DNA of 54,910 nt. Origin: Pseudomonadota bacterium (lineage in GTDB: Bacteria; Pseudomonadota; Gammaproteobacteria; BMS3Bbin11). The notes under the pieces are model-generated. The model searched no databases. It saw only the letters and a program-made list of their open reading frames with translations, and was not told the DNA's origin. Made by a program: the position numbers and the translations under genes. Location: assembly GCA_034659075.1 (NCBI GenBank), contig JAYEGM010000005.1, positions 1 through 54,910 of the forward strand. The letters run 5' to 3'. Shown here piece by piece: positions 3,090 to 54,910 of the stretch; the first letter of the stretch is position 1; each line of letters starts with the position of its first letter.

Positions 3090-3159
3090 AGGTTTTACGG
3101 TTTACGGTTTACGGTTTACGGTTTACGGTTTACGGTTTTAAACTTGAAACTTGAAACTT
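3090..3159. repeat. Heptamer array: AGGTTTT + (ACGGTTT)x6 + TAAACTT + (GAAACTT)x2
   Basis: Read directly; ten in-phase 7-mers fill the whole recO-pdxJ spacer. Confidence 0.95.
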
Positions 3160-3894
3160 TTAGCCTAAACCCGATAATACCTGATGAAATACCCGCCGGC
3201 TATGCAGCGGTTTACCCGACAGCTGCCTGTCCAGCAGATAGCGAGTTAGCTGGCGACACTCTTTCAAACTGTCTTTGTCATTAAAATCATTATGGTAAAA
3301 ATCCAGTAAACTTTTCCCCTTAATGAATATGCTCTGCACTTCAGGATGGTACTCCTGCACGCTTTGTGAGAGAGGGCGCGGCCCTTGCTCAGGAACATAC
3401 TGATACCGGGCTTCGGCGACAACCGGTCGGGATGATCCCGCTTCGTGGTGCAGAATCAATCCATAACCACTCTGGCTCAGTAATTCTTTTTCAAAACGTC
3501 TTAGCGCATGTTGTATCGGAACACCCTGGTAAATTTCATCAAGACTCTTGCTATAAAAATCGAACAGGTTTTCATGTGCATCATGCCGATGCAATAATTT
3601 CAGCAATAATTCATTCAGGTAAAAAGCCGCGTATCTTTGTTCAGATGTCAGCTCCCTGGCGCAACCTGAGGCTTCAATCCCGGTAAGCAGGGGCAATTCC
3701 CCTTTACCACTCCAGCCAAGTAGTAGCGACTGAAAAGGCATAACCAGGGCACGTTTACGGGACTTTGGGTTTCTAACGCCACGGGCAAGTAAACCTGCCC
3801 GGCCGTATTGCCGGGTAAAAACTTCAATAATCAGGCTGGTCTCACGAAAGGGTCGGGCATGCAACAGAAAAGCCGGCTGGGACTGTACCCTCAT
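3160..3894 (-). CDS. recO: DNA repair protein RecO
   Basis: AFLLHARPFRETSL, FYLNELL motifs; era-recO-pdxJ order. Confidence 0.95.
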   Translation of the reverse strand: MRVQSQPAFLLHARPFRETSLIIEVFTRQYGRAGLLARGVRNPKSRKRALVMPFQSLLLGWSGKGELPLLTGIEASGCARELTSEQRYAAFYLNELLLKLLHRHDAHENLFDFYSKSLDEIYQGVPIQHALRRFEKELLSQSGYGLILHHEAGSSRPVVAEARYQYVPEQGPRPLSQSVQEYHPEVQSIFIKGKSLLDFYHNDFNDKDSLKECRQLTRYLLDRQLSGKPLHSRRVFHQVLSGLG

Positions 3895-4790
3895 TCTTCC
3901 TCGATATATCCAATCGAGCGCAACATTACTGCATCATCAGACCAATTCTCTCTCACTTTCACCCAGAGCTGAAGAAAAACTTTTCGATTAAAATATGACT
4001 CCAGCTCCTCTCTGGCATGCGTACCGACGGTACGCAACTTCTCACCTTTCTTGCCAATGATTATGCCTTTCTGACTGTCTTTCTCTACCCAGATTATGGC
4101 ATCCGCCCGTATCAGTTCGTCTGCCATCTCCAATTGCTGGATTTCTACGGCTAGGGCATAAGGAATTTCATTGTGCAGCTGGCGAAAAAGTTTCTCTCTT
4201 ATCGTTTCTGAAATAATAAATCGGGCACCTTTATCTGTCGTCTGCCCTTCAGGAAACAACAGAGGGCTTTCTGGAAGATACTCAGGTAAAACATTCAATA
4301 ATGACTGAACATTGCTTCCATCGCTGGCCGAGAGGGGAACAATTGCCTTGAAATCATGCAGCTGTGAAGAAAATTCAATTAACGGCAGCAGCTGGTTCTT
4401 ATTTTTTAATTTATCAATTTTGTTAATCAACAAAATAAGGGTAGCATTTTCCTGCTGCGCAAGCTTCAAGGCATAGCGATCCTCTTCCTTCCAGCCTTCC
4501 GATGTAATCATCAGCAGCGTAACATCAACACCCATCAGGGCATTCGCAGCAGTCTTATTCATGATCTGGTTGATATAGCGTTTACTGCCAAGATGCACGC
4601 CTGGCGTATCAACAAAAATCATCTGGTATTCTTCTGTTGTACTGATACCCAGTAAACGGTGTCGGGTAGTCTGTGGCTTAGAAGATGTAATACTGATTTT
4701 CTTGCCTATGATGCGGTTCAATAACGTCGACTTGCCGACATTTGGCCGACCCAGTATGGCAATGAAACCTGCACGGAAACCTTTTGTCAT
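3891..4790 (-). CDS. era: GTPase Era
   Basis: GRPNVGKS, DTPG, NKID and C-terminal KH domain (IIIGKKG). Confidence 0.97.
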   Translation of the reverse strand: MTKGFRAGFIAILGRPNVGKSTLLNRIIGKKISITSSKPQTTRHRLLGISTTEEYQMIFVDTPGVHLGSKRYINQIMNKTAANALMGVDVTLLMITSEGWKEEDRYALKLAQQENATLILLINKIDKLKNKNQLLPLIEFSSQLHDFKAIVPLSASDGSNVQSLLNVLPEYLPESPLLFPEGQTTDKGARFIISETIREKLFRQLHNEIPYALAVEIQQLEMADELIRADAIIWVEKDSQKGIIIGKKGEKLRTVGTHAREELESYFNRKVFLQLWVKVRENWSDDAVMLRSIGYIEEE

Positions 4791-5494
4791 CGTCCTGAAT
4801 ATCCTGACATAGCCTGCAGAGCCTTTTCAGCAGAATCCTGTTCTGCCTTGCGACGGCTGGCGCCCTGCCCATGGAACACCCGCCTGCCCTCAGCTATCAG
4901 ACATTGCACTTTGAATGACTGCTTGTGTGGAGGACCACTTACATCAAGAACTGTATATTCCGGGAGTGCCTGTGATCTTTGCTGTAAATGTTCCTGCAAG
5001 CGGGTTTTCGGGTCTTTTAAGATATTATCGGGTTCACATAATGCAAGCCTGTCGGCAAACATTCTATTGATAAATAGCCGGCATGGCTGAATCCCTCCAT
5101 CATAGTAGATGGCACCGATAATCGCCTCTATGACGTCAGAAAGAATGGAGTCTCGTGCCTGGTCACCGCTTTTAAGTGCGCCGGGACCCAGAATAAGATA
5201 CCTGCCAAGATCTAATTCTCTGCCCAGTTCTGCCAGTGTTCCCTGCCTGACGAGGCTTGCACGCAGTCGGGTCAATTGTCCTTCATCTGCCGCTGGAAAC
5301 CTTTCGCAAATAATATCTGCAATGATAAACCCGAGCAGGCTGTCACCAAGGAATTCCAGTCTTTCATAGTTATCCGAGCCGTGACTTCTATGGGTTAATG
5401 CACGTATTAACAGTTCTGGCCTGGAATTAAAATCATAGCCCAGTGACTTCTGAAGTCTCTGTATATTTTCATCATTTAAGCGAGACTTCGACAC
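4787..5494 (-). CDS. rnc: Ribonuclease III
   Basis: NYERLEFLGDS signature and dsRBD (DPKTRLQE...AEQ); exact start uncertain. Confidence 0.96.
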   Translation of the reverse strand: MSKSRLNDENIQRLQKSLGYDFNSRPELLIRALTHRSHGSDNYERLEFLGDSLLGFIIADIICERFPAADEGQLTRLRASLVRQGTLAELGRELDLGRYLILGPGALKSGDQARDSILSDVIEAIIGAIYYDGGIQPCRLFINRMFADRLALCEPDNILKDPKTRLQEHLQQRSQALPEYTVLDVSGPPHKQSFKVQCLIAEGRRVFHGQGASRRKAEQDSAEKALQAMSGYSGR

Positions 5495-5861
5495 TATTCT
5501 CGAAATCCAGCAATGCGCTGATATTGTATGCCATGGGGATTACCCGCTCGTAATCGACACTTATCACCTTGATATTTTTTATTTTTGTAATTTGCAGTGC
5601 CTCATTCAGGTCAAGCAAATCTGCTGCCATATCGATATAAAGAGTGTCACTTATTTTTTGCAACATCTGACGACGGGTCCAGCTTCCAACACCCGGTTGT
5701 TCCGCAAGGGATTCAAGCGCATGTGCAACCTTGTTGTTATCGAGATATGCAGGGACCAGTTTCATTGTAACCAGAGCAAAAAGAACAAACAGAGCTGCCC
5801 CGCCGAGCAGGCCCCACATTGATGCCCCTTTCTGATTGCTGCTACGTTTAATATTTTCCAT
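5472..5861 (-). CDS. DUF4845-like membrane-anchored protein
   Basis: QKGASMWG pilin-like N-terminus with TM helix; usual position between lepB and rnc. Confidence 0.75.
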   Translation of the reverse strand: MENIKRSSNQKGASMWGLLGGAALFVLFALVTMKLVPAYLDNNKVAHALESLAEQPGVGSWTRRQMLQKISDTLYIDMAADLLDLNEALQITKIKNIKVISVDYERVIPMAYNISALLDFENSVEVSLK

Positions 5862-5891
5862 CTGCTTCTCCTTCAGGCAAAAGTTGATCAG

Positions 5892-6695
5892 TTATTTTTT
5901 ATTCGCGTTCAGCATAGTACCAATTCTGGACCAGTTAACGCCACCGCCATTAGACCAGTCCCATGAGAACCAGATGAAAAATGCCTTGCCGACCACATTT
6001 TTGTCCGGCACGAAGCCCCAGTAGCGACTGTCATTACTATAGTTCCGATTGTCGCCCATAACAAAATACTGACCTTGCGGGACATCAAACTTCATTATTT
6101 GAGAACTGCCTCGGCGGGGATCAATCAGTATATCATGCTTCACATTTACCAGATCCTCCTTTAACTTATTCAGCGATAGCTTTCGACTGACGCCATTCCT
6201 GAACTCGTAATTTCCATCTGCCTGTTGCGGCATCAGTTCACCATTGATATAAAGTTTTTCAGCCTTGTATTCAATTTTATCCCCGGGCAGCCCGATCACT
6301 CTTTTAACGAAATGCATTTTGGGATCATGAGGGAAACGAAACACCATAATATCCCCTCTATCGGGATCAGATACAGAGACAACTTTTTCGTTAAGTACCG
6401 GTAACCTGATGCCATAGCTGAACTTATTCACCAGAATAAAATCACCAACATTTAATGTAGGCAGCATTGAACCGGACGGAATTCTGAATGGCTCGGCTAT
6501 AAATGAACGCAAAACGAAAACGATCAGGATAACCGGAAAAAACGCCTTGGCGTATTCAACAAGTAAAGGATCTCTGGTGAGTTCTCCTGCCTGCTGGTTC
6601 CTGCCAGCTCTTTTGCCGGAAAAGAAGACTGCATCAAGTAACCAGATGGCACCTGTAGCCAATAGCGCGATTAAGAGTATTAATGAAAAATCCAT
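5892..6695 (-). CDS. lepB: Signal peptidase I
   Basis: EPFRIPSGSMLPTL, VKRVIGLPGD, MGDNR.YS.DSR motifs. Confidence 0.97.
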   Translation of the reverse strand: MDFSLILLIALLATGAIWLLDAVFFSGKRAGRNQQAGELTRDPLLVEYAKAFFPVILIVFVLRSFIAEPFRIPSGSMLPTLNVGDFILVNKFSYGIRLPVLNEKVVSVSDPDRGDIMVFRFPHDPKMHFVKRVIGLPGDKIEYKAEKLYINGELMPQQADGNYEFRNGVSRKLSLNKLKEDLVNVKHDILIDPRRGSSQIMKFDVPQGQYFVMGDNRNYSNDSRYWGFVPDKNVVGKAFFIWFSWDWSNGGGVNWSRIGTMLNANKK

Positions 6696-6698
6696 GTT

Positions 6699-6966
6699 TA
6701 GTGCTCCCTCAAGGAAGTATTGGTGGGTTCAGTTGGTTTGTCAGTGTTCAGGGCAAGACCCGCCTCGAAGCGAATGGCCATAGTCCTTTGCAAGAGGCAG
6801 AACGCAGCCATGAGGCTGACAAACCAACCCTTCGGGCGTTCCTGTGGTGTCCCGCAGCGGCGTTGCAGTACTTGACAAAGGACATTGCCATTGCCCGCAC
6901 ACTGCGTCTTGCTGCAAAACACCACAGGAACGCTGCACCCATCAATACTTCCTTGACGGAGCACTA
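6699..6966. mobile_element. 268-bp TA-flanked non-autonomous fold-back element (MITE/ERIC-like), copy A
   Basis: 34-bp terminal inverted repeats 6699-6732/6933-6966 (3 mismatches), TA at both ends, internal stems 6732-6744/6816-6828 and 6836-6850/6919-6933. Confidence 0.8.
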
Positions 6967-8772
6967 GTCCTCCGAGACCTTTAATACTGCAAGAAAGGCT
7001 TCCTGAGGGATTTCCACTGAGCCGATCTGTTTCATTCGTTTTTTACCTGCTTTCTGTTTTTCCAGTAACTTGCGTTTCCGGGTTATATCACCACCATAAC
7101 ATTTTGCCGTTACATTCTTCCTTAGGGCCTTGACAGTTTCTCTAGCGATAATCTTACCGCCAATTGCAGCCTGTATGGCGATGTCAAACATCTGCCTGGG
7201 AATAATCTCACGCATCGCTTTTATTAGTTCACGACCGCGATACGGAGCATTGCTTTTGTGTACGATGACAGAAAGCGGCCCTACCCTTTCTCCGTTGATT
7301 AAGACATCAACCCTGACGACATCGGCCGCTCTGAATTCCAGAAACTCATAATCCATCGAAGCATAACCGCGGCTAACTGACTTCAAACGGTCAAAGAAAT
7401 CCAGCACCACTTCACTCATGGGCAGTTCATAGGTCAACATAACCTGACGACCAAGATACTGCATATCCTTTTGCACACCACGTTTATCATTACAAAGTTT
7501 CATCACACTGCCAACATATTCCTGCGGCATCAATAAGTGAGCAACGATGACGGGCTCTCTGATTTCCTCAATCAACGAAATATCCGGTAAGCGTGCGGGA
7601 TTATCAACATGGACTATTTCCTGCTTTTTAGTCAGGACTTCGTAAATAACTGTCGGCGCAGTCGTAATGAGATCGAGATCATACTCTCTTTCCAGTCGCT
7701 CCTGAATAATTTCCATATGCAGCATGCCAAGAAAACCGCAGCGGAAACCATGTCCCAATGCATCAGAATTTTCCGGCTCGAAATAGAGTGAGGCATCATT
7801 CAGGCTAAGCTTCTCCAGCGCATCACGAAAGCCATGATAATCACCTGAACTTACTGGGTATAAACCTGAAAACACGCGAGGCTGAGATTCTTTGAAGCCA
7901 GCCAGTGCTTTATCAGTCGGGCGATCACGTAGCGTTACAGTGTCGCCGACCCGCGCACTGCGGATATCCTTGATGCCAGCAACCATGAAACCAACTTCAC
8001 CACAACGCAAGATGTCTGTCTCGGTGCGTTTTGGAGTAAAGACACCGACAGTATCGACAATGTATTCACTTCCGGTCGCCATCAGCCGAACCCGGTCTTT
8101 TTTCTTAAGTTCGCCATCAACAATTCGGATCAGAGAGACAGTGCCAAGGTAATTATCAAACCAGGAGTCGATTATCAGGGCTTTTAACGGTGCATCCGGG
8201 TTCCCTGTCGGGGATGGAAGATCGCGAACAATGGCTTCCAGCACTTCTTTTACACCTAAACCGCTCTTGGCACTGGTTTCGACTGCCGCCGAGGCATCGA
8301 TACCGATAACATCCTCAATTTCAGCTCGTACCCGGTCAGGCTCAGCAGCAGGCAAATCAATCTTATTCAGCACAGGTACCACTTCAAGACCGATATCGAC
8401 AGCTGTATAGCAGTTTGCAACAGTCTGGGCTTCCACACCCTGTGCTGCATCAACAATCAGCAGAGCCCCTTCACAGGCCGTCAGAGAACGTGACACTTCA
8501 TAAGAAAAGTCAACGTGACCGGGTGTATCAATAAGATTTAACTGGTATGTCTGACCATCATCAGCATGGTAATCGAGACGAACACTCTGTGCCTTGATGG
8601 TAATACCTCGCTCACGCTCGATATCCATCGAATCCAGCACCTGATCATTCATCTCACGTTCTGTTAAGCCACCGCATAGCTGAATGAATCGATCGGCCAG
8701 GGTAGATTTACCGTGATCGATATGAGCGATTATCGAGAAGTTTCTGATGTGGTCTGTCGCAGACTCATGCAC
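6964..8772 (-). CDS. lepA: Elongation factor 4 (LepA)
   Basis: [38 protein letters not shown]; start probably GTG 8772 or ATG 8787 rather than the track start at 8823. Confidence 0.96.
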
Positions 8773-8820
8773 GCGGCAGGTCCCCATAAATAAAAAATGG
8801 AAATTATACGCTATTGAAGG

Positions 8821-8849: not shown

Positions 8850-8857
8850 GAGTTTTA

Positions 8858-10282: not shown

Positions 10283-10350
10283 GTGTTGATCCTCGGAACT
10301 GCTAAAAAGTATAGATAAATGAAGCAAAATAAAAAACGGAAAGCTCAGGC

Positions 10351-20284: not shown

Positions 20285-20319
20285 TGGTCTTTGGCCTTAG
20301 GTCTTCTGACTTTGATCTC
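20285..20319. repeat. Degenerate heptamer array TGGTCTT TGGCCTT AGGTCTT CTGACTT TGATCTC
   Basis: 7-nt periodicity with CTT at the unit end in four of five units. Confidence 0.55.
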
Positions 20320-20648: not shown

Positions 20649-20679
20649 CCTCTGTACCCTTCGTGCCCTCTGTGGTGAA
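20649..20679. repeat. Single arm of nonamer-based REP-like repeat (CCTCTGTAC CCTTCGTGC CCTCTGTGG TGAA)
   Basis: Matches the arms at 22550-22571 and 25311-25332. Confidence 0.7.
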
Positions 20680-20691: not shown

Positions 20692-20726
20692 CATATTTTG
20701 AACTTGAAACTTGAAGCTTGGATATT
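20692..20726. repeat. Degenerate GAAACTT heptamer array
   Basis: CATATTT TGAACTT GAAACTT GAAGCTT GGATATT, just after the ftsB stop. Confidence 0.7.
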
Positions 20727-20730: not shown

Positions 20731-21000
20731 TCATTCAATAATCTGCACAAAAACCTCATCAGACCGTATCAACCCCAGGTCACTGCGCGCCCGCTCTTCT
20801 ATCGCTTCCGTGCCTTTCTGCAAGTTAACAATCTCCCCGGCTAGTTCACGATTGCGCTGTTGCAGGCGTTCATTTTGCACCTGCTGTGTAACGATATCAC
20901 GCTTCATTTTCCAGATATCCAGTAAACCGCCTTTGCCGAAGGTGAGTGTATAGGCCAGTAAAATGGCCAGTACAATTCCAGATGCAAGCAGAAGCTTCAA
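20731..21000 (-). CDS. ftsB: Cell division protein FtsB
   Basis: TM helix, GKGG, coiled coil, AIEERARSDLGLI..DE; TTG start 21000 with AGGAG RBS; follows eno. Confidence 0.92.
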   Translation of the reverse strand: MKLLLASGIVLAILLAYTLTFGKGGLLDIWKMKRDIVTQQVQNERLQQRNRELAGEIVNLQKGTEAIEERARSDLGLIRSDEVFVQIIE

Positions 21001-22429: not shown

Positions 22430-22571
22430 TTACCACAGAGGACACGGAGGTCACAGAGGAAAAAAGATGATTACCTTGTGGCTATGTGCGTAAAAAATAC
22501 TTTTCGACTAGACAAAAAAACGCAGAGAAAGAACGAACAAACACAAAAACCTCTGTGTCCTCTGTGGTGAA
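22430..22571. repeat. Nonamer-based inverted-repeat (REP-like) element between kdsA and eno
   Basis: Left arm TTACCACAGAGGACACGGAGGTCACAGAGG (22430-22459), right arm CCTCTGTGTCCTCTGTGGTGAA (22550-22571), ~90-nt AT-rich spacer. Confidence 0.8.
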
Positions 22572-25099: not shown

Positions 25100-25197
25100 T
25101 TAGTGTGCGGGGACTGTTCCCCGAACGGGAGAAAAGCATACCAAAGCCGCCCACACTTCACAATCAGAACATTAGTTTGAAGTTCAAAGTCTTTTTT

Positions 25198-25332
25198 TTA
25201 CCACAGAGGACACGGAGGACACAGAGGTTTTTGCGTTGGCATATTTCTTATCAAATACTGGAGTTGAAGCAGAAGCTCGGTGATGCATTACATTTAACAG
25301 AAAATATTTTTCCTCCGTGTCCTCTGTGGTAA
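25198..25332. repeat. Nonamer-based inverted-repeat (REP-like) element between tilS and pyrG
   Basis: Perfect 22-bp inverted repeat TTACCACAGAGGACACGGAGGA / TCCTCCGTGTCCTCTGTGGTAA with one extra nonamer on the left arm. Confidence 0.85.
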
Positions 25333-44789: not shown

Positions 44790-45767
44790 TTACTCGTCGC
44801 CCTTGCTTGCGGCTGCTTTCTTGACAGCCTTCTTTTTTACCGCTTTTTTCTTCACAGCTTTCTTTTTCACAGCCTTTTTCTTGACTGCTTTTTTAACTGC
44901 CGGTGCTTCTTCTGCGGCAGGCGCAGCATCAGCAGCAAGCTCTTCAGATTCTACTTTACCGGTATCTGCTTTTTTTGCTTCCGTTGCATCACTATCAGAT
45001 TTCACTATTTCTATCAGTGCCTCAGCCTTGGCATCATCCATTTCAATAAAGTCGTCAGTTCCGGCAGCTGCAGGAGCCGTTGCTACAGAATGGCGCCCTT
45101 CGATAATGGCATCGGCAATTGTTTCAGCATAGAGTCGAATTGAACGAATCGCATCATCATTACCAGGAATGACATAATCAATGCTTTCCGGCTTACAGTT
45201 GGTATCAACCACCGCAACCACTGGTATGCCAAGCTTTTTCGCTTCGGCTATGGCTATGTATTCATATTTAACATCGATGATGAATAGTGCATCCGGCAGG
45301 CCATTCATGTTCTTGATACCGGACAGCGAGCGTTCCAGCTTGGTGCGTTCACGCTCGATGCGCAGACGTTCTTTTTTGATCAACTTATCGGCCTGACCAC
45401 TTTCAAACTGTTCGTCCAGCTCTTTCAGACGCTTGATTGAATTGCGCACAGTCTTGAAATTGGTCAGCATACCGCCTAGCCAGCGGTGATCGACATAAGG
45501 TGAAGCAGAGCGTATCGCTGCTTCACGGATAACTTTACTTGCCTGGCGCTTGGTGCCGACAAACATAACATTGCCGCCTTTAGACGCAATCTTTCCGAGG
45601 AAATTACTGGCTTCCTCAAACAGTGGCAGGGTTTTCTCCAGATTAATGATATGGATCTGGTTGCGCTCACCAAAGATATAGGGGCGCATTTTGGGGTACC
45701 AGAAACGTGTACGGTGGCCGAAATGAACACCAGCTTCCAGCATATCGCGAAGCGAAATCTTAGACAT
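44790..45767 (-). CDS. rpsB: 30S ribosomal protein S2 with long C-terminal extension
   Basis: [26 protein letters not shown]; acidic then (KKKAV)n tail. Confidence 0.97.
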
Positions 45768-45937
45768 CTAAATTCTCCGTTCGGGTTACATTCACATGGG
45801 TTGCAACGCCAGTCTGGCAAACGATTAGTCTGTCAAACACCCGGGCTCTGCTATTGTTCCCACGATCATTTTAGTTAAGTCATTAATGACAGCGTTTTTC
45901 AAAATCAGGTGGCCCGCAACTCAGGGCTCCTGAAAGA
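45768..45937 (-). promoter_or_regulatory. rpsB 5' leader (probable S2 autogenous operator, t44-like)
   Basis: About 170-nt leader between promoter and ATG containing GGGTG and AACCC motifs seen in gammaproteobacterial rpsB leaders; fold not computed. Confidence 0.5.
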
Positions 45938-45954
45938 GGCGCGTTTATAGCACA
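45938..45954 (-). promoter_or_regulatory. rpsB extended -10 promoter with GC-rich discriminator
   Basis: Minus strand TGTGCTATAAA-CGCGCC, resembling the E. coli rpsB promoter TGTGGTATAAA-GCGCGC. Confidence 0.7.
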
Positions 45955-45963
45955 TATACGTCG

Positions 45964-46121
45964 AAGTTCCAAGCTCCATGCTTAAAGGCTAAAAACCCAA
46001 TACCATGGTTCGTCTTTCGTCTTTCGTCTTTCGTCTTTCGTCTTTCGTCTTTCGTCTTTCGTCTTGAAACTTGAAACTTGAAACTTGAAACTTGAAACTT
46101 GAATCTTGGAACGTGAAACTT
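45964..46121. repeat. Bipartite heptamer array: six degenerate A(A)NNNNN units, ACCATGGT palindrome, (TCGTCTT)x8, (GAAACTT)x5, GAATCTT GGAACGT GAAACTT
   Basis: Read directly; 16 in-phase units at 46010-46121. Confidence 0.92.
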
Positions 46122-46171
46122 CTTTTCCCCAATTTCCGTCAGGGATATCATTATTTTAGACTGAGTCCGGT

Positions 46172-46177
46172 TATAAT
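46172..46177 (+). promoter_or_regulatory. Candidate sigma70 -10 box for map
   Basis: Perfect TATAAT followed by GC-rich GCCCCGC, about 33 nt before the map ATG; no clear -35. Confidence 0.45.
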
Positions 46178-46210: not shown

Positions 46211-46978
46211 ATGAGCATTACTATCAAAACTGTGGATGAAATAGAAAAGATGCGGGTGGCCGGGCGGCTGGCAGCAGAGGTTCTGGAAATGATTGAGCCC
46301 TATGTTAAAGCCGGTACCAGCACCGATGAGCTGGATGCCATCTGCCAAAAATATATCGTAGAAGAACAACAGGCTATCCCTGCCCCGTTAAACTATCACG
46401 GTTTTCCAAAATCTATCTGCACCTCGATCAACCATCAGGTATGCCATGGCATACCCGGTGACCGGGTACTGAAAAATGGCGATATCATTAATATCGACAT
46501 TACCGTTATCAAGGATGAATTCCACGGTGATACCAGCCAGATGTTTGCAGTCGGTGTGCCATCTACACTCGCCCGTCGTCTGATGGATAATAGCCGTGAG
46601 TGCATGCTTAAAGGCATTGCCCTGGTTAAACCCGGCGCTCAGCTTGGCGATATCGGCCATGCCATTCAGTGCCATGCCGAAAAAAACCGTTTTTCCGTTG
46701 TCCGTGAATACTGTGGTCATGGCATTGGACGCGGGTTCCACGAAGAACCCCAGGTTCTACATTATGGCGAGGCAGGAACGGGCATTACATTGCTGGAAGG
46801 CATGACGTTTACCATTGAACCAATGATCAATGCCGGCAAAAAAGATGTAAAGCTGCTGCCTGATGGCTGGTCGGTTGTCACCCGTGACCGTAAACTCTCT
46901 GCGCAATGGGAGCATACCATCCTGGTCACCGCAGATGGCCATGAAATACTGACCCTGCGAGAAAACGAAGAGGTCTGA
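46211..46978 (+). CDS. map: Methionine aminopeptidase type I
   Basis: FPKSICTSIN..VCHGIP, GHGIG..FHEEP, FTIEPMIN, SAQWEHT; ATG 46211. Confidence 0.97.
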   Translation: MSITIKTVDEIEKMRVAGRLAAEVLEMIEPYVKAGTSTDELDAICQKYIVEEQQAIPAPLNYHGFPKSICTSINHQVCHGIPGDRVLKNGDIINIDITVIKDEFHGDTSQMFAVGVPSTLARRLMDNSRECMLKGIALVKPGAQLGDIGHAIQCHAEKNRFSVVREYCGHGIGRGFHEEPQVLHYGEAGTGITLLEGMTFTIEPMINAGKKDVKLLPDGWSVVTRDRKLSAQWEHTILVTADGHEILTLRENEEV

Positions 46979-47096: not shown

Positions 47097-49697
47097 TTGC
47101 GGGATACCAGGGAGATTCTTCACCGAGCCCAGTCCGAGGGTGCCTCCAGCACCAATGTAATCACCCTCTGGACCTGGTTCATCGACCAGCTGCTGATCGA
47201 AATCTGGCAATCTGTTCAGACCGGTGATCCGGCCTCCAGCTGCTGCAGCCTGATTGCGGTCGGTGGATACGGGCGAAACGAGCTGCACCCCTCCTCGGAT
47301 ATCGACCTGATGATCCTGGTAGAAGGGAAAGCGGGTGAAAACATAGATGATGCCGTCGCTGAATCAGGCAAACAGTTTCTGCATATTTTATGGGACATCG
47401 GCCTGGATATCGGCCACAGTGTACGCACAGTCGCTGAATGCAAAGAAGCGGCCACTGACCTGACCGTCGTCACCAACCTGATGGAAGCCCGCCTGTTGGC
47501 CGGCTCGAACCCACTGCTGCAGCAAATGCAGGCCGCCATCTCACCCGAGCAGATCTGGCCTGCCGATGAGTATTTCCATGCCAAGCTGCAGGAGCAGCAG
47601 GCACGCCACGTTCGCTTCGGCGAAACAGCCTACAAGCTGGAGCCAAACATCAAGGAAAGCCCCGGCGGGCTGCGCGATCTGCACATGATCTCCTGGGCAA
47701 CAATGCGCTATTTCAATGCGACGTCTCTGGAAGAACTGGTACAGCATGAATTTCTGACCCGCGATGAGTATCAAACACTGATACGCTGCCGCAACTTCCT
47801 TTGGCGTATACGCAATGGCCTGCACTTTCTAAGCGGCCGCAGGGAAGACAGGCTGCTGTTTGAACATCAACGCGTACTGGCAACTGAATTTGGCTACGTT
47901 GACAAACTCGGCAGCCTCGCCGTAGAGCAGTTGATGAAGCGCTATTACCGGACTGTAAAAGAGCTAGGGTTATTGAATGACATTCTGCTGCAGCATTTTG
48001 AGGAAGTCTTCCTGGTACAGAAAAATAATACCTCGGTAAAGATTAATCGCCGCTTCAATGCCATAAATGGCTATGTGGATGTTGTGGATAACGGTATTTT
48101 CAATCGCCAGCCTTTTGCCTTGCTGGAGGTATTTTACATCCTGCAGGATTTACCAGAGCTGAAAGGCATTCGAGCAAACACTATTCGCCTTATCCATAAC
48201 TCACTAAACCTGATCACCCCTGAATTTCGCCAGGACATCGCCTGCCGCAGCCTGTTTATTGCCCTGTTTCGCAATGGCACCGGACTCACACACATCATGC
48301 GGAAAATGAATGACTATGGTGTACTGGGTGCTTACTTCCCTGCCTTTGGCCGCATCGTAGGCCTGATGCAGCATGATCTGTTTCATATATACACGGTAGA
48401 TGTCCACACACTTTTTGTTTTACGGAATCTGCGACGACTGACTGTCGATAAATATCACGATGAACATCCACTGGCCAGCAGAATACTGGCAAGGCTATTC
48501 AAACCCGAACGCCTGTATCTGGCCGCCCTGCTACATGATATTGCAAAAGGACGCGGTGGCGAGCATTCTGAGAAAGGTGAAAAAATAAGTATCCAGTTCT
48601 GTCGCCTGCACGACCTCAGTGAATACGACACAAAGCTCGTTGCCTGGATGGTGCGCAACCACCTGATAATGTCCTGGACGGCACAGAAAATGGACATTTC
48701 TGATCCTCAAGTTATTGCCGAATTTACACGGACTGTGGGTAATCAGGAACATCTTGATAACATTTACCTTTTGACCATGGCAGACATGCGGGGCACCAGC
48801 CCTAAAGTCTGGAATGACTGGAAAAACAAACTTTTACTGCAACTTTATCATGCAACATCGAGACACCTGAGGCGTAGAGATATTGATGGTGAGCGTGATG
48901 AAGAACGCCTCGACAACCTGCAGCAGGCACTTTCCGGTAGCCTGGTTCCGGCACAGGTTTCAGATGCAAACTTCCAGCGTTACTGGTCGTTATTCGATAG
49001 CGATTATTTCCTGCGTTATGAAGTCGACACCTTAAAATGGCATATACAAACTCTCGCCAGTGTCAGTATTCTTGAGTTGCCGGTAGTGGCCGTTCGCTAT
49101 GCAAAAAATTCAGGCAGTACCGAGGTTCTGGTATTTACCCCGGATATGCCTAATCTCCTGGTCAGAACAACAGCAGGCTTTGATCGCCTGAACCTGAATA
49201 TTGTCGACGCGCGCTTACATACGACACAAATGGGATTTGCCCTGCACAATTATCTGGTGCTGGATCAAAATGATGATGCAGTATGCACGAGTACAGATCA
49301 GAAAGAGATAGAAGAAGCCCTGAAGAATCAGCTTCTAAGCCCCCGCAAAGGACGTGACCCGCGCAAAGCGCATCTGCCCCGGGTATTGAAACAGTTCCCA
49401 ATTCCTACACAGGTAAATTTTCCGGAAATACGACAGGGGCAATACACCATCATAGAGGTTGTCGCGCAGGACAGGCCGGGACTTTTATACCAGATTGCAG
49501 AAGTATTCGAAAAATGTGAAATCAAGCTGCATAATGCCAAAGTAGCCACATATGGTGCACGAATCGAAGATATATTCTTTGTTAGCGACCTCGGCAACAA
49601 CCCCATCACTGACACACAGCTACATGACCGCATCAGACAAAAAATAATTGATAGACTGGATACAATTCAGAACTCTGAGAGCACAATCAATTTTTAA
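47097..49697 (+). CDS. glnD: [Protein-PII] uridylyltransferase / uridylyl-removing enzyme
   Basis: AVGGYGR.EL.P.SDIDL, EPNIKESPGGLRD, HD domain (LLHDIAKGRGG), ACT (DRPGLL); start uncertain. Confidence 0.95.
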   Translation: MRDTREILHRAQSEGASSTNVITLWTWFIDQLLIEIWQSVQTGDPASSCCSLIAVGGYGRNELHPSSDIDLMILVEGKAGENIDDAVAESGKQFLHILWDIGLDIGHSVRTVAECKEAATDLTVVTNLMEARLLAGSNPLLQQMQAAISPEQIWPADEYFHAKLQEQQARHVRFGETAYKLEPNIKESPGGLRDLHMISWATMRYFNATSLEELVQHEFLTRDEYQTLIRCRNFLWRIRNGLHFLSGRREDRLLFEHQRVLATEFGYVDKLGSLAVEQLMKRYYRTVKELGLLNDILLQHFEEVFLVQKNNTSVKINRRFNAINGYVDVVDNGIFNRQPFALLEVFYILQDLPELKGIRANTIRLIHNSLNLITPEFRQDIACRSLFIALFRNGTGLTHIMRKMNDYGVLGAYFPAFGRIVGLMQHDLFHIYTVDVHTLFVLRNLRRLTVDKYHDEHPLASRILARLFKPERLYLAALLHDIAKGRGGEHSEKGEKISIQFCRLHDLSEYDTKLVAWMVRNHLIMSWTAQKMDISDPQVIAEFTRTVGNQEHLDNIYLLTMADMRGTSPKVWNDWKNKLLLQLYHATSRHLRRRDIDGERDEERLDNLQQALSGSLVPAQVSDANFQRYWSLFDSDYFLRYEVDTLKWHIQTLASVSILELPVVAVRYAKNSGSTEVLVFTPDMPNLLVRTTAGFDRLNLNIVDARLHTTQMGFALHNYLVLDQNDDAVCTSTDQKEIEEALKNQLLSPRKGRDPRKAHLPRVLKQFPIPTQVNFPEIRQGQYTIIEVVAQDRPGLLYQIAEVFEKCEIKLHNAKVATYGARIEDIFFVSDLGNNPITDTQLHDRIRQKIIDRLDTIQNSESTINF

Positions 49698-49734
49698 TCA
49701 GTTCAACCCATAACTAACAGCTAGATACCGATAC

Positions 49735-50940
49735 ATGAACTCACGACTGGATGACCTGAAGGAATATCCTTTTCAACGACTCAAGCGTTTACTGACTGGT
49801 ATCGAACCAGCCTCTGACAAACAGCGCATCATGCTGTCACTGGGTGAACCTAAGCATGCCCCCCCTACTTTCATCCATGACGTGCTGGCGAATGGTGGCC
49901 ATCTGCTTTCCGGTTATCCGGGCACCCGCGGAGAAGTAGCCCTGCGGCAGTCAATCTGCAGCTGGCTCAGTCGAAGATTTCATATTGATGAAGGCATGCT
50001 TGATCCCGAACAAAATGTCCTGCCGGTTAGTGGCAGCCGTGAAGCCATTTTTTCCTTTATTCAGGCAACGATTGACCGCAGCAGTCACAGCCCGGCACAC
50101 GTTATTATGCCCAACCCGTTCTACCAGATCTATGAGGGTGCTGCGATCATGGCCGGTGCTACACCTTATTTCCTCAACAGCGTAGAAAAAAATGACTGGC
50201 AGCCGCAGCTGGATAAAGTACCGCAGCAGATATGGCAGGAAACCCAGCTGCTGATCCTCTGCTCACCCGATAACCCGACCGGCTCCGTTATCCCCGCGGA
50301 TACCTATAAACAGGTCCTGGCTCTGGCAGACCGCTACGACTTCATCGTTGCCGCAGATGAATGCTATAGCGAACTCTATCGCGATGAAGACACACCGCCT
50401 GTCGGCCTGCTGCAAGTCGCTGCAGAACAGGGCCGCAGCGGCTTTGAGCGTTGCGTCGTTTTTCACAGCCTGTCCAAACGCTCTAATCTACCCGGTCTGC
50501 GTTCTGGCTTTGTCGCCGGGGACAGTAATATTATTAATGCCTATTTTAAATACCGCACTTATCACGGTTGCGTTCCCAACCGCCTGACTCAGGCCATTTC
50601 TGTTGCGGCCTGGGATGATGATGAACACGTAGTACAGAATCGTGCTGTATATCGTGATAAATTCACCGCCGTTATTGATATACTAGATCCCGTTATAAAA
50701 TTGAATCAACCTGCTGCCGGTTTCTATCTGTGGCCGGAGACCCCGATCAACGAGGAAGATTTCAGCCGGCGATTGTTTCAGTATGAAAATGTGGTCACCC
50801 TGCCGGGCACCTATCTTGCACGTGGCACCCTTGAGGGCAATCCCGGGGAAAACCGGATACGCATCGCCCTGGTGGCCGAACAGCAGGAATGCATAGAAGC
50901 GGCCGAACGAATTAGTGAATTTATAAAAGAAAAAATGTAG
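49735..50940 (+). CDS. dapC: N-succinyldiaminopimelate aminotransferase
   Basis: YPFQRL, PNPFYQIYEGAA, DECYSE, SLSKRSNLPGLRSG; upstream of dapD. Confidence 0.92.
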   Translation: MNSRLDDLKEYPFQRLKRLLTGIEPASDKQRIMLSLGEPKHAPPTFIHDVLANGGHLLSGYPGTRGEVALRQSICSWLSRRFHIDEGMLDPEQNVLPVSGSREAIFSFIQATIDRSSHSPAHVIMPNPFYQIYEGAAIMAGATPYFLNSVEKNDWQPQLDKVPQQIWQETQLLILCSPDNPTGSVIPADTYKQVLALADRYDFIVAADECYSELYRDEDTPPVGLLQVAAEQGRSGFERCVVFHSLSKRSNLPGLRSGFVAGDSNIINAYFKYRTYHGCVPNRLTQAISVAAWDDDEHVVQNRAVYRDKFTAVIDILDPVIKLNQPAAGFYLWPETPINEEDFSRRLFQYENVVTLPGTYLARGTLEGNPGENRIRIALVAEQQECIEAAERISEFIKEKM

Positions 50941-50947
50941 CTCTTTA

Positions 50948-50968
50948 GAAACTTGAAACTTGAAACTG
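50948..50968. repeat. Short heptamer array (GAAACTT)x2 GAAACTG
   Basis: In the dapC-dapD spacer; same unit as at 3146, 20706 and 46066. Confidence 0.75.
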
Positions 50969-50990
50969 AATTTATTTCCGAGGAAACCCT

Positions 50991-51812
50991 ATGCAAGACC
51001 TGAAAAACCAGATTAATGAAGCATTTGAACAGCGTGCCGAGATCACCCCTCGCACCGCTGCCAGCCATGTCAAAGATGCTGTTTACAGCGCCATCGAAAT
51101 GCTGGACACCGGGGAAGCCCGGGTGGCCGAGAAAAAAGATGGCGACTGGGTAGTCAATGACTGGTTGAAAAAAGCCGTTTTGCTGTATTTCCGCATTGAA
51201 GACAATAGCTTTAACAAAGGTGGCTTCACAAACTATTTCGACAAAATCCCATCAAAGTTCAGCGACTACAATTCGCGTGATTTCAGGGATGGTGGTTTCC
51301 GTGTTGTGCCGCCGGCTACAGCGCGCCGCGGCTCTTATATAGCCCCAAATGCCGTGCTGATGCCAAGCTATGTCAACATTGGCGCCTATGTAGACGAAGG
51401 CACCATGGTAGATACCTGGTCAACGGTAGGTTCCTGTGCCCAGATAGGTAAAAATGTCCACCTCAGCGGCGGTGTGGGGATAGGCGGCGTGCTGGAGCCG
51501 CTGCAGGCTTCACCCACTATTATTGAGGACAATTGTTTCATTGGCGCTCGCTCCGAAGTGGTTGAAGGTGTGATCGTAGAAGAAGGTGCTGTACTTGCAA
51601 TGGGCGTCTACCTTAGCCAGAGCACAAAAATTTTTAACAGGGAGACCGGTGAGTACAGCTATGGTCGCGTACCCGCCTATTCTGTTATCGTTCCCGGTTC
51701 ATTACCTTCAAAAGATGGCAGTTATAACCTGAATTGCGCTATTATCGTTAAACAGGTTGATGAGAAAACACGTAGTAAAGTCGGTATAAATGAATTGCTG
51801 CGCGAAGCCTGA
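50991..51812 (+). CDS. dapD: Tetrahydrodipicolinate N-succinyltransferase
   Basis: [40 protein letters not shown]. Confidence 0.97.
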
Positions 51813-51848
51813 TACCAGTAATGCAGCAAAATTAATATATACAGGACT

Positions 51849-52205
51849 ATGTCGACTTCTATTATTCTTGCAGGAATCAAAAACTGTGACAGCGTTCGAT
51901 CTGCGCAGCGATGGCTGGATGAAAATAGTATTAAATATGATTTTCTCGACCTCAGGTCTGATCTTTTTGTGCGCCACATTCTTGGCAAATGGATGGAAAA
52001 AGTTGACTGGACTACACTGCTGAATAAACGCAGTGCAACCTGGCGAGGACTCGATGACAAGGAACGTACGGACCTTGATGAAGTCCGGGCCATGTCATTA
52101 ATGATGAAGCATCCTACCTTGATCAAGCGACCTGTTCTACAGGTTGACGATCTCATAGAAGTCGGTTTCTCCGCTGAGCGATACGCCGAGTTACTCAAGA
52201 CCTGA
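51849..52205 (+). CDS. ArsC/Spx-family protein (YffB-like)
   Basis: GIKNCDSV, LLNKRSATWR, PTLIKRPVL, VGF; directly upstream of dapE as for yffB. Confidence 0.88.
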   Translation: MSTSIILAGIKNCDSVRSAQRWLDENSIKYDFLDLRSDLFVRHILGKWMEKVDWTTLLNKRSATWRGLDDKERTDLDEVRAMSLMMKHPTLIKRPVLQVDDLIEVGFSAERYAELLKT

Positions 52206-52208
52206 TGA

Positions 52209-53378
52209 ATGAACAAAGAAACGACTAAAAAAAACGTAAATTCCACTCTACAGTTATGCTGCGAACTAATCAGCCGCCCCTCCATCACACCCGATGACCA
52301 GGGATGCCAGACGCTAATTTGCGAACGCCTGCAACCCGCTGGCTTTACTTGCCAGCACCTCCGTTTTGAAGATGTCGATAACCTTTGGCTGACACATGGG
52401 ACAGGCAGCCCATTGTTTGTGTTTGCCGGCCATACCGACGTCGTACCTACCGGCCCGGAAAGCAACTGGTCCAGCCCTCCATTTGAACCAACTCAGCGAG
52501 ACGGAAAGCTGTATGGTCGCGGCAGTGCCGACATGAAGGCATCCATAGCCGCATTCGTCACCTCTGCTGAGCAATATGTGGCTGAATACCCTGACCACCC
52601 CGGCACAATTGGCCTGCTGATCACCTCGGATGAAGAGGGCCCATCCATTAATGGCACAGTTAAAGTCATGCAGTGGCTGGAATCGCAATTAATTAAGATT
52701 GATTATTGTATTGTTGGTGAGCCCTCATCTGTTGAGACCCTGGGTGACACCGTAAAAGTTGGTCGGCGCGGATCACTGAATGGTTATATGACTGTCTACG
52801 GAAAACAGGGCCATGTAGCCTACCCTCAGCTGGCCGACAATCCTTTCCACCGTGCCCTGCCCGCGTTAACTGAACTGGCCGGTATTGAATGGGATCAGGG
52901 AAATGATTTTTTTCCGGCTACCAGTTTTCAAATCTCCAATGTCACAGCAGGGACCGGAGCAGAAAATGTTATACCGGGCGATGTGACGATTAAATTTAAT
53001 TTCCGTTTTTCTTCAGAATTAGATGAAAAGCAGATAAAGAAACGTGTGTTCGATGTTTTTGAAAAATATAAGTTGCGCTACTCAATAGAATGGCGCCTGT
53101 CAGGTAAGCCTTTTTTAACAGCAAAAGGCATGCTGGTCGAAGCGGTCAGTAAAGCATGTTCTGAAATCCTTGATATTACTCCAGAGTTATCGACTTCCGG
53201 TGGCACATCAGATGGGCGGTTTATCGCACCAACAGGGGCTGAAGTAGTAGAACTTGGACCCTGCAATGGTAGTATTCATCAGTTAGATGAACATGTTATG
53301 CTGACAGACCCAGAGCGACTGGCAAATACATACCACCGCACCCTTGAACTTATTTTTAACAGTAACAAAGAAACATGA
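52209..53378 (+). CDS. dapE: Succinyl-diaminopimelate desuccinylase
   Basis: FAGHTDVVP, GRGSADMK, TSDEEG, GRRGSL, GGTSDGRFI. Confidence 0.97.
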   Translation: MNKETTKKNVNSTLQLCCELISRPSITPDDQGCQTLICERLQPAGFTCQHLRFEDVDNLWLTHGTGSPLFVFAGHTDVVPTGPESNWSSPPFEPTQRDGKLYGRGSADMKASIAAFVTSAEQYVAEYPDHPGTIGLLITSDEEGPSINGTVKVMQWLESQLIKIDYCIVGEPSSVETLGDTVKVGRRGSLNGYMTVYGKQGHVAYPQLADNPFHRALPALTELAGIEWDQGNDFFPATSFQISNVTAGTGAENVIPGDVTIKFNFRFSSELDEKQIKKRVFDVFEKYKLRYSIEWRLSGKPFLTAKGMLVEAVSKACSEILDITPELSTSGGTSDGRFIAPTGAEVVELGPCNGSIHQLDEHVMLTDPERLANTYHRTLELIFNSNKET

Positions 53379-54169
53379 AACAGGTCTTTCCCTGCCACCC
53401 TCAACACATACGGATAAAAATGGCCGGTGTCACTGATACGGGACAGCGACGTGATAACAATGAAGATAATATTCTTATCGACAGACATCATGCTCTTGCC
53501 ATCGTTGCTGACGGCATGGGTGGGCATAATGCCGGTGAGGTTGCCAGCAAGATAGCAACTGATGTAACCAGTCAGTTTCTAATCGCTGGACTGCGTATAG
53601 AAAGCCGGATGGACGATGCCTTTTCCACGCCAGAACCAATGGAAGACCTGCTGGAAAAGTCCATTCAACTGGCAAACCGGAAAATTATTGAAGAATCTGG
53701 CAATGATGATAAAAAAAGCGGTATGGGAACAACAATAGTCTGCCTGCTTTTCTGCAAAAACTGGTTTGTTATTGGAAATATTGGGGATTCCCGCTGCTAC
53801 CGCTTCCGGGATGGAAGAATCAGTCAGCTAAGCGAAGACCACAGCTGGATTCAGGGCATGGTTGCAAAGGGAACCATCAATGAGGAAGATGCTAAACGCC
53901 ACCCGCAAAGAGGCCTGCTGCTGCAGGCACTTGGTAATCGGGAAGTTGAGCCTACATTCGTCTCAGGATGCCCTATGGCTGGTGATATATTTATTCTCTG
54001 TTCAGATGGACTGACAGAGGTAGTCAGCAATAATACGATTGGATTTGTGCTAAATCAGGATGGAAGTCCAGAAAAAACGGCTGAGAAGCTTGTTGAGCTG
54101 GCCAATGAAAATGGCGGACCCGACAATATATCAGTTGTTGTGGTAAAAATATTATCCCTCAGTAAATAA
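53375..54169 (+). CDS. PP2C-family (Stp1/PrpC-type) Ser/Thr protein phosphatase
   Basis: R..NED, VADGMGGH..GE.AS, GMGTT, IGDSRCY, LCSDGL, GGPDNIS. Confidence 0.92.
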   Translation: MKQVFPCHPQHIRIKMAGVTDTGQRRDNNEDNILIDRHHALAIVADGMGGHNAGEVASKIATDVTSQFLIAGLRIESRMDDAFSTPEPMEDLLEKSIQLANRKIIEESGNDDKKSGMGTTIVCLLFCKNWFVIGNIGDSRCYRFRDGRISQLSEDHSWIQGMVAKGTINEEDAKRHPQRGLLLQALGNREVEPTFVSGCPMAGDIFILCSDGLTEVVSNNTIGFVLNQDGSPEKTAEKLVELANENGGPDNISVVVVKILSLSK

Positions 54170-54196
54170 TGGACAGGGCTCTGCAGCAAACCCACA

Positions 54197-54715
54197 TCAG
54201 GTCTGCCTGTGATAAGTGGTTTTATGGCACTTAGGACAAGGAGGGATATGCCCGGCCTTATGAAAATGCAAAATCTCCCCACATTCATCACATACCAGTG
54301 CACCCGGGCCAGTTATTTCCCCTGTTTTATAGACTGAATTAGCCGCAAGTTCCAGCTTCAATTCATTCATCTCAACCGTTGTTGGATCAGCGGCCTGCAG
54401 GAACATATCCAGTAGCTCCGCCGCCAGCAGGCTGTCTTCAAAGCCCAGCCAGTCCTTAAGTTCCTTTCCATGCTCAGAGATGTAAAAGGCGGCATCAGAC
54501 AGATCGCGTTTAAGATATTCTGCCAGATGGGCTGCCTCTTCTTCTGTCAGCTCTTCAAGCTCGATCGCCTTCTCTTTAGCCTTATCGATCAATGAATGCA
54601 GAGCCGGTCCGCTCTTCTTTTCCAGTTTATGAAATTCTGTCGCACTGCGTTCCAGCATTGTCTCGTAGGCAGCACCCATGATATCCAGCGGGTCATTAAT
54701 TCTTTTCTTAGGCAT
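54197..54715 (-). CDS. Zinc-ribbon-containing protein (DUF1451-like)
   Basis: YLKRDL, YKTGEITGPG.L.CDECG...IPPCPKC. Confidence 0.8.
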   Translation of the reverse strand: MPKKRINDPLDIMGAAYETMLERSATEFHKLEKKSGPALHSLIDKAKEKAIELEELTEEEAAHLAEYLKRDLSDAAFYISEHGKELKDWLGFEDSLLAAELLDMFLQAADPTTVEMNELKLELAANSVYKTGEITGPGALVCDECGEILHFHKAGHIPPCPKCHKTTYHRQT

Positions 54716-54779
54716 GATTCTACTCCGTCATTTACACCGATTCTTTATATTTAAAGGATAACATGAATTGACCTGCAAC

Positions 54780-54910
54780 AGGATTTACGGTTTACGGTTT
54801 ACGGTTTACGGTTTACGGTTTACGGTTTACGGTTTACGGTTTACGGTTTACGGTTTACGGTTTACGGTTTACGGTTTACGGTTTACGGTTTACGGTTTAC
54901 GGTTTACGGT
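54780..54910. repeat. Heptamer tandem repeat (TTTACGG)x18 running to the window end
   Basis: AGGATTT followed by perfect ACGGTTT units; 18 TTTACGG copies at 54784-54909. Confidence 0.97.

Follow-up and report, generated by a model that had tools for sequence, protein, structure and literature searches.

An intergenic family of heptanucleotide arrays in a gammaproteobacterial genus, probably evolving in place by gain and loss of whole units

The short tandemly repeated repetitive (STRR) heptamers of heterocystous cyanobacteria belong to the same class of repeats as the seven-nucleotide arrays described here, which lie on the 54,910-nt contig JAYEGM010000005.1 (contig C5) of assembly GCA_034659075.1, a Pseudomonadota bacterium (GTDB Gammaproteobacteria; BMS3Bbin11); this entire contig is called the window below. 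In many bacteria, heptamers outnumber all other long simple repeats, and the class is a known but unexplained one. According to Mrazek 2007, as relayed in PMC4679880 and PMC4692102, they top the long-repeat classes in scattered prokaryote genomes, and polymerase slippage was proposed as their origin. In Rehm 2015 (PMC4692102), the heptamers GGGAATC of Xanthomonas and GGGGA(C/T)T of Nostoc, of unknown function, are about 90% intergenic, form 70-75 convergent inverted pairs, lie closer to one neighbouring open reading frame (ORF) whatever its orientation (28 versus 160 nt), and occupy sites common to close relatives, with varying length and sequence. MacGregor 2015 (PMC4679880) describes TAACTGA direct repeats in marine Beggiatoaceae, some cyanobacteria and Bacteroidetes, mostly just upstream of starts without a ribosome-binding site; in BOGUAY, a start lies ahead of 147 of the 170 sets and a stop ahead of 12. 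A third related system, described in PMC4990558, is that of the S23p/PF05635 intervening sequences (IVS) of 23S rRNA in Coxiella and Leptospira, in which a small four-helix-bundle ORF lies within complementary arms and, in Coxiella, the stem is cleaved by RNase III. PF05635 is similar to Avd, a protein of diversity-generating retroelements (PMC10053308).

The draft genome under study (G000; the labels G002, G004, G005, G007, G008, G009 and G010 denote congeners) comprises 2.99 Mb in 262 contigs with 48% G+C and is 98% complete. We consider it probable that its arrays form a genus-wide hypervariable family of intergenic heptanucleotides, of the class known from Xanthomonas, Nostoc, the cyanobacterial STRRs and TAACTGA, evolving in place mainly by whole-unit slippage. 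Such in-place evolution is the most likely process, and neither mobility nor templated addition of repeats is supported. Tandem Repeats Finder (TRF) assigned period 7 to 475 of its 1386 rows on the genome. When perfect arrays of at least 3 copies were counted, 190 were found at period 7, versus 0, 0 and 0 in three order-5 Markov sequences and 2, 6, 1 and 3 at the control periods 5, 6, 8 and 9. A relaxed period-7 scan gave 246 arrays versus 1 in the control, and 130 of the 1734 spacers of at least 30 nt held such a relaxed array. The genome-wide excess of period 7, a check proposed in the original prediction for the window, was thus found, and the predicted single dispersed system is borne out by the single period, the shared units and a register kept at unit junctions (see below).

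Canonical units number 94, and one of them, GAAACTT (hereafter K), makes up 93 of the 190 perfect arrays. Units had been described as mostly ending in TT; this is only approximately true, the data showing a ...CTT class (TCGTCTT, AGCCTTT, CCCCTTT) and a ...AAAC... class (GAAACTT, GAAACCT, TAAACCG). They are A/T-rich, G-richness being confined to the minor unit AAAGGGG. By crude ORF calls, 144 of the 190 perfect arrays lie wholly between genes, 32 do so in part and 14 fall inside ORFs, where 7-nt units are rare; the genome is about 89% coding.

The family is shared by the genus: (GAAACTT)3 is present in all 10 same-genus genomes and absent from the 30 other genomes searched. In a 397-kb sample of G002, 43 arrays have period 7, 8 have period 6 and 1 has period 8; GGAACTT is the most frequent unit there, and GAAACTT is present twice. 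Outside the genus, two sampled genomes yielded a single array (85 kb sampled) and two arrays (198 kb sampled). Orthologues were compared over six spacers, together with the G002 sample. In the spacer between rpsB and map the flanks are conserved and the content between them is species-specific: G007 carries AAGTTCC x3 and AAGATCC facing GGAACTT and GGATCTT x2, the G002 spacer is nearly palindromic, those of G005 and G008 are without an array, and in G000 the left arm is decayed and the right arm expanded. The pdxJ-recO spacer consists of phased 7-mers in four species and the amplified unit differs, that of G004 being TTGGTCT, akin to the units found at 20285..20319 in the window. The array between dapC and dapD (50948..50968 in G000) has 1-4 copies over six genomes. 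Array sites are conserved across the genus, and the amplified unit and the copy number shift from species to species in whole 7-nt steps, in register. The comparison of orthologous spacers, proposed as a search for filled and empty sites, thus returned arrays at the same spacers with other units and copy numbers; the array at 54784..54910, an (ACGGTTT)18 seen only in G000, had no counterpart at its site in the five relatives compared. Since sister species have arrays in these spacers too, differing in unit and copy number, in-place evolution fits better than insertion. The cores between paired arms (n=25) are unique, except for one duplicated locus and one shared unrelated repeat, and therefore no conserved mobile body was found. 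The idea that the arrays are footprints of a mobility system fares poorly against these unique cores and orthologous sites, and the accompanying premise that slippage cannot yield one period conflicts with the published heptamer excess among long bacterial repeats (Mrazek 2007, relayed in PMC4679880 and PMC4692102).

The arrays are strongly polar with respect to gene edges. Below, '<' stands for the AAGTTTC orientation and '>' for the GAAACTT orientation. Among the 95 GAAACYT runs with genes on both sides, the nearer gene edge lay ahead of the 3' end in 81, behind it in 12 and at equal distance in 2, with median gaps of 8 nt ahead and 83 nt behind; the edge ahead belonged to a stop codon 53 times and to a start codon 42 times. 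In the 65 arrays that follow a stop by no more than 15 nt, the sense strand reads AAGTTTC in 36 cases, AGGTTTC in 4 and AAACTTG in 2, the first unit often being fused with the stop codon. Arrays within 60 nt before starts (n=50) read GAAACTT in 22 cases, GAAACCT in 4 and AAGTTTC in 1, and, of the GAAACYT runs upstream of a start, 13 of 52 stop 7-15 nt short of it without a Shine-Dalgarno sequence in between. The stop-side and start-side rules combine into one picture, that of a spacer bracketed by (AAGTTTC)n...(GAAACTT)n. Both orientations were found in the same spacer 31 times versus 1.5 expected, always in the order '<' then '>'. A separate pattern search for '<...>' gave 30, 8, 1 and 1 matches in G000, G009, G005 and G010, and the pattern '>...<' gave 0 matches across all 11 genomes searched; the G002 sample obeys the same orientation ('<>' 4, '><' 0). 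An inverted partner within 350 nt accompanies 58 of 120 GAAACTT-type arrays and 15 of 126 other arrays, direct partners at this distance number 4 and 2, respectively, and the reversed and complement controls gave 0. Units of the CTT class share the orientation of K in 25 versus 6 cases, of 52. Gene bracketing, with the arrays as inverted ends around genes, was also considered and rejected in favour of spacer bracketing (1 observed versus 1.2 expected).

Unit order follows a rule as well. At 20 of the 26 junctions between units, the in-register alignment alone gives the highest identity; about 4 such junctions would be expected. An in-register (NNNNCTT)n block followed by (GAAACYT)n was found 45 times and the opposite order 4 times; the K block is the gene-proximal one in the same 45 versus 4 cases. 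TCGTCTT arrays (n=14) are followed by GAAACTT in 10 cases and preceded by TTTTCTT in 6. The module layout is: gene, (AAGTTTC)n [(AAGACGA)n ...], unique core, [... (TCGTCTT)n] (GAAACTT)n, gene, in which the GAAACTT-type block takes the outer position and frequently abuts the start or stop codon. What the original prediction had seen in the two mixed arrays of the window, a GAAACTT block on the right, therefore generalises to the genome. A 'stratigraphy', in which the newest unit is always outermost, was rejected, since in G000 the expanded GAAACTT block of the rpsB-map spacer has degenerate units on its outer side.

Set against the Xanthomonas and Nostoc heptamers, the G000 arrays are alike in their strict 7-nt unit, with one dominant unit per genome, and in being intergenic, polar, paired convergently and located at shared sites in relatives. 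They differ in that their units are A/T-rich and not G-quadruplex-forming, in contrast to the G-rich Xanthomonas and Nostoc repeats, in the many secondary units nested in register inside the dominant one, in lineage and habitat, and in the one-base shift of the commonest unit seen here between congeners; GGAACTT versus GAAACTT is this shift, and GGGAATC x2 has 0 occurrences in G000. With the TAACTGA repeats they share an intergenic and oriented placement, housekeeping genes as neighbours, and the breaking of contigs at arrays; the likeness may extend to a position directly before starts without a ribosome-binding site, as in the 13 of 52 upstream runs. Unlike the TAACTGA sets in BOGUAY, the G000 runs face a start in 42 cases and a stop in 53, and their arrays reach greater lengths (up to over 18 copies) and often come as pairs of inverted arms; TAACTGA x2 has 0 occurrences in G000. 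The long simple sequence repeats (SSRs) of 5-11 nt of Mrazek 2007, as relayed in the two later papers, are given as statistics without the polarity grammar or the nested unit order found here.

The window has the usual gammaproteobacterial housekeeping content, including lepA-lepB-rnc-era-recO-pdxJ, enolase, pyrG, tilS, dnaE and bamA, and rpsB facing map-glnD-aminotransferase-dapD. TRF reported period 7 in 7 of its 23 rows, namely 3094-3138 (x6.4, 100%), 3140-3159 (x2.9), 20701-20720 (x2.9, 92%), 46009-46065 (x8.1, 100%), 46063-46121 (x8.4, 88%), 50948-50967 (x2.9) and 54784-54910 (x18.1, 100%), the last reaching the contig end. Lag 7 is the autocorrelation peak in all eight stretches originally predicted (0.57-0.98). 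The degenerate stretches 20285-20319 (0.61), 25173-25193 (0.57) and 45964-46005 (0.63) fall below TRF detection at score 30; the first and the last are supported by orthologous arrays in relatives, and 25173-25193 alone is not significant, its lag-7 level being matched by 844 windows of 21 nt versus 435-1485 at lags 6, 8 and 9. Seven of the eight predicted arrays are thus clearly periodic and one is weak when taken alone; the three perfect units, and the register at both mixed junctions, are as they had been described.

In the pdxJ-recO spacer, (ACGGTTT)x6.4 at 3094..3138 reads (AAACCGT)n on the minus strand, to which it is assigned, and stops 5 nt short of the start codon of pdxJ (3089) without an intervening Shine-Dalgarno sequence. 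In register with it, TAAACTT GAAACTT GAAACTT (3139..3159, plus strand) abuts the recO stop codon (3160-3162), so that the recO sense strand reads taa-AAGTTTC-AAGTTTC across the stop. A degenerate array of five units, TGGTCTT TGGCCTT AGGTCTT CTGACTT TGATCTC, occupies 20285..20319 (plus strand; lag-7 identity 0.61), and a GAAACTT-type one, TGAACTT GAAACTT GAAGCTT GGATATT, lies at 20692..20726 (plus strand), its 3' end 4 nt from the stop, at 20731, of an ftsB-like (DivIC) gene on the minus strand. The weak, AAGTTTC-like TAGTTTG AAGTTCA AAGTCTT at 25173..25193 (minus strand) adjoins a CACAGAGG-type inverted-repeat element. The rpsB-map bracket has a decayed left arm, AAGTTCC AAGCTCC ATGCTTA AAGGCTA ..., at 45964..46005 (minus strand), where relatives carry (AAGTTCC)n at the same place, and a right arm on the plus strand made of an inner block (TCGTCTT)x8 at 46010..46065 and an outer block at 46066..46121, (GAAACTT)x5 then GAATCTT GGAACGT GAAACTT, pointing at map (start 46199). 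Between the aminotransferase gene and dapD, GAAACTT GAAACTT GAAACTG (50948..50968, plus strand) begins 7 nt past the stop (50940) and ends 22 nt ahead of the dapD start (50991). Finally, (ACGGTTT)x18.1 at 54784..54910 (minus strand) lies 68 nt upstream of a DUF1451 gene on the minus strand (start 54715) and runs into the contig end. The contig terminating inside this array, the assembly breaks there; across G000, period-7 runs form 11 of 524 contig ends. The window arrays conform to the orientation rules at the recO stop, the ftsB stop, the dapD start, the map side and the pdxJ start. An identity as phase-variation SSRs, which would sit within ORFs of surface or restriction genes or between their -35 and -10 boxes and switch expression, was rejected, the window arrays flanking housekeeping genes (pdxJ, recO, ftsB, rpsB, map, dapD) and 7-nt units being rare inside ORFs.

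Metagenome data from cold seep, brine and sediment were kept as assembled contigs, not as reads, and among the contigs of runs X1-X3 and of the RNA run X14 none spans the window arrays. One X2 contig connects 45949 to 46164 through 147 different letters, which means that a variant rpsB-map spacer exists. Two RNA contigs only were found, at 45691-45917 and 46264-46412, neither on arrays. A scan of the window at the Rfam gathering thresholds gave 0 matches.

Genes of the four-helix-bundle family were described in the original prediction as often flanked by such 7-mer runs, and this link holds in relatives. No TIGR02436/PF05635 gene was found in the 98% complete G000 genome; one PF05635 gene each is present in G002, G004 and G010 (3 of 10 congeners), every one framed by inverted heptamer arrays on inspection of its flanks. 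In G002 and G004 the cassette lies between prs and rplY, with arms (GTTCAGT)3-6 ... (ACTGAAC)2-3, and the prs-rplY site of G000 is empty; the G010 cassette has arms AAAGGGG.../CCCCTTT.... The three cassettes have a common leader, TTATTT(T)CCATGG(A/T)GGGA. G000 has a single copy of this leader, immediately past an AAGTTTC-type arm, and what comes next there is unrelated sequence and a GIY-YIG ORF. The locus (L122, G000:C140:9800-11400; 100-620 within it) consists of the AAGTTTC-type arm, the leader TTATTTCCATGGAGGGAGAT-ATG and then the GIY-YIG ORF of 96 aa, which lies inside an inverted repeat of its own, CGTCATTCCGGC...GCCGGAATGACG. Possibly it is a small-gene cassette that has decayed or been swapped. 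Contig C140 also holds the only '<' gene '>' bracket of G000, enclosing the GIY-YIG ORF and a CpsB/CapC gene. As in the S23p IVS, the congener PF05635 ORFs are framed by arms, here heptamer arms; unlike the IVS, the cassettes lie between protein genes and not in rRNA, and G000 has the arms without the gene. Among the 15 best of 475 literature matches to these gene names, none linked them to heptamer repeats.

On the favoured reading, that of in-place evolution, replication slippage would add and remove whole units with an intrinsic preference for 7 nt, perhaps along the lines of the polymerase-footprint idea of Mrazek et al., as relayed in PMC4679880 and PMC4692102. Variant units would arise by point mutation within a phased array and then be amplified, which would yield the 'interchangeable' units in one register. 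The inverted arms, being able to pair, might be kept alike by intrastrand template switching or by selection on the stem. Where both arms survive, the transcript would carry an A/U-rich stem of 14-33 bp, a candidate site of RNase III processing or of insulation by analogy with the stems of S23p-type cassettes; rnc itself lies in the window (4787-5494). Single arms just upstream of starts would give unstructured leaders free of Shine-Dalgarno sequences. All 31 brackets fold arm to arm (median z -5.7; two examples z -9.5 and -5.8), which follows from how the brackets were selected; a stem is possible at many loci and absent at others. The pdxJ leader is less structured than shuffles. Selection for RNA-specific stems, sought through the asymmetry created by G-U pairs, was rejected for want of a signal.

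Several results weigh against this reading. As to its hairpin part, the rpsB-map spacer (z -0.40) and the pdxJ-recO spacer (z +1.37) show no gain in folding over shuffles, and in 12 co-directional spacers the sense stem was the stabler in 5 and the antisense one in 7, with no RNA-level signal; moreover, the rpsB-map arrays apparently lie between two divergent promoter-like -10 boxes identified by eye and may thus be untranscribed there. Gene edges are crude longest-ORF calls, which makes distances to start codons uncertain. The (ACGGTTT)18 array without a counterpart in five relatives means that arrays also arise de novo. Plain slippage does not account for the strictness of the polarity, for the fixed order of units or for a commonest unit that is specific to the species. 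A single unit occupies about half of the perfect arrays, the sampled part of the sister species G002 prefers a one-base variant of it, and the composite TTTTCTT-(TCGTCTT)n-(GAAACTT)n is repeated at many loci; together, these three call for spread between loci or for a preference acting in trans.

Spread between loci is the core of a first alternative, which we hold to be unlikely: the arrays would be the ends of an element that moves or is exchanged, its footprints or its landing sites, for instance those of a hairpin-framed cassette of 23S-IVS type with a PF05635 Avd-like gene, the gene-less arrays of G000 being relics or empty sites and the unit having spread by copying. The framed genes in 3 of 10 congeners with the empty prs-rplY site of G000, and the shared leader found once in G000 beside an AAGTTTC-type arm, agree with it, but G000 is devoid of PF05635/TIGR02436 and yet has an array density similar to that of the sampled G002, which has one such gene. 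A dominant unit per genome, a stereotyped composite at many loci and an array at 54784 present only in G000 are also what copying would leave behind; the unique cores, with neither a conserved body nor target duplications seen, and the orthologous spacers holding different units across species speak for evolution on the spot. Cassette movement was nowhere seen, and the inspected Y1-transposase (RAYT-like) gene is flanked by a different repeat. A preference acting in trans underlies a second alternative, to which we give an equally low probability: the arrays might be tracks bound by a factor able to recognise a 7-nt register in RNA or DNA, for which ribosomal protein S1, a protein with a cold-shock domain and other single-strand binders are candidates; the tracks would tune translation initiation or mRNA fate, and the dominant unit would co-evolve with the factor. 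A single-strand binder was put forward for TAACTGA by MacGregor (PMC4679880), whose repeats lie mostly before starts without a ribosome-binding site. The strict orientation at gene edges, the 13 of 52 upstream runs ending 7-15 nt before a start without a Shine-Dalgarno sequence, the weakly structured pdxJ leader and the species-specific dominant unit would suit such a factor; stops, however, are faced more often than starts (53 versus 42), canonical units number 94, copy number ranges over 1-4 at one conserved site without visible constraint, and some arrays (rpsB-map, by eye) apparently lie between divergent promoters.

Templated repeat addition, in which a reverse transcriptase or telomerase-like activity would stutter along a multi-unit template in a fixed unit order, is very improbable. 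The inner-to-outer order TTTTCTT, TCGTCTT, GAAACTT is indeed fixed with a variable copy number of each unit, and the arrays at the two ends of a spacer are inverted like telomeres on linear DNA. The only reverse-transcriptase gene of G000, however, sits on a 2-kb contig next to transposase fragments, canonical units number 94, orthologous arrays differ by unit substitution and copy number in the manner of microsatellites, and the expanded GAAACTT block of the G000 rpsB-map spacer is not at the outer end. Somewhat less remote, though still doubtful, is a combined view: the arrays would be the product of an orientation-specific process on intergenic hairpins, tied to exchangeable small-gene cassettes (four-helix-bundle/Avd-like, GIY-YIG) with stems of the same repeat, which installs one species-specific unit at gene edges and leaves older units inside. 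If this were true, the '<...>' order (31:0, with 10 overlapping matches versus 0 in three congeners and 4:0 in G002), the fixed sequence of units from inner to outer (45:4), a commonest unit that differs among congeners and the presence of the cassette leader beside a G000 arm would be signatures of a shared, undescribed mechanism of repeat propagation, and this could also explain the recurrence of 7-nt repeats in distant phyla.

With about 100 arrays per Mb, the genus is an unusually clean case for this class of repeats: the orientation grammar is strict, units are nested in register and sister species favour other units at the same sites. Hairpin-framed four-helix-bundle cassettes occur in some members only, and together with the grammar this opens 'why 7' and 'why polar' to comparative genomics. 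For annotation, heptamer arrays matter because they break assemblies and may displace recognisable ribosome-binding sites.

Some observations concern sequences next to the arrays. Conserved promoter-like boxes, noted by eye, flank the rpsB-map arrays at 45940-45990 and 46160-46175, with a minus-strand TATAAA and, 17 nt upstream, a TTGGAA within the first heptamer unit; GGTTATAATG is a promoter-like box preceding map, also by eye. The possibility that the arrays are rows of -35-like hexamers (TTGAAA/TTGGAA) was rejected: it is plausible by eye at rpsB only, and impossible for those runs that end 7-15 nt from a start or face a stop. Upstream of the DUF1451 orthologue (window 54716-54780), a G+C-rich palindrome, GAGCGTCGCTCGGCGCGAT...ATCGCGCCGAGCGACGCT, replaces (ACGGTTT)18 in the relatives' loci L109, L113 and L116.

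Other repeats are present in the genome. An identity of the heptamers as miniature transposable elements with inverted repeats (MITEs) or as REPINs, pairs of repetitive extragenic palindromic (REP) sequences mobilised by a REP-associated tyrosine transposase (RAYT), was rejected, the cores being unique without a conserved body and the RAYT-like gene at C6 being flanked by a different inverted repeat. That gene, of Y1-transposase type, has flanking inverted GGGGTCGGAGTGATTTAA repeats (regions C6:2500-3340 and C9:1000-1090, outside the window), with 23 sites in the genome at up to 2 mismatches; they make up a REP-like family that is distinct from the heptamers. In the window, another dispersed element, some 130 nt long, is found at 22432-22570 and 25200-25331, with a partial copy at 20650-20678. 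Its ends are inverted, of the type ACCACAGAGGACAC(G/A)GAGG...CCTC(C/T)GTGTCCTCTGTGGT, and its end motif has 33 sites (up to 2 mismatches) on 21 contigs, 10 of them within 80 nt of a heptamer array; it looks MITE-like and sometimes lies inside a heptamer bracket. Within genes, rpsB (44790-45767, minus strand) encodes an S2 of 325 aa with a C-terminal (KKAVK)-type tail, corresponding to a 15/30-nt tandem repeat at 44817-44891, and a CAC/ACCACC trinucleotide-type repeat at 1369-1415 is located at the 3' end of a small ORF of Fe-S cluster biosynthesis (1362-1757, minus strand), for which a repeat tail is predicted.

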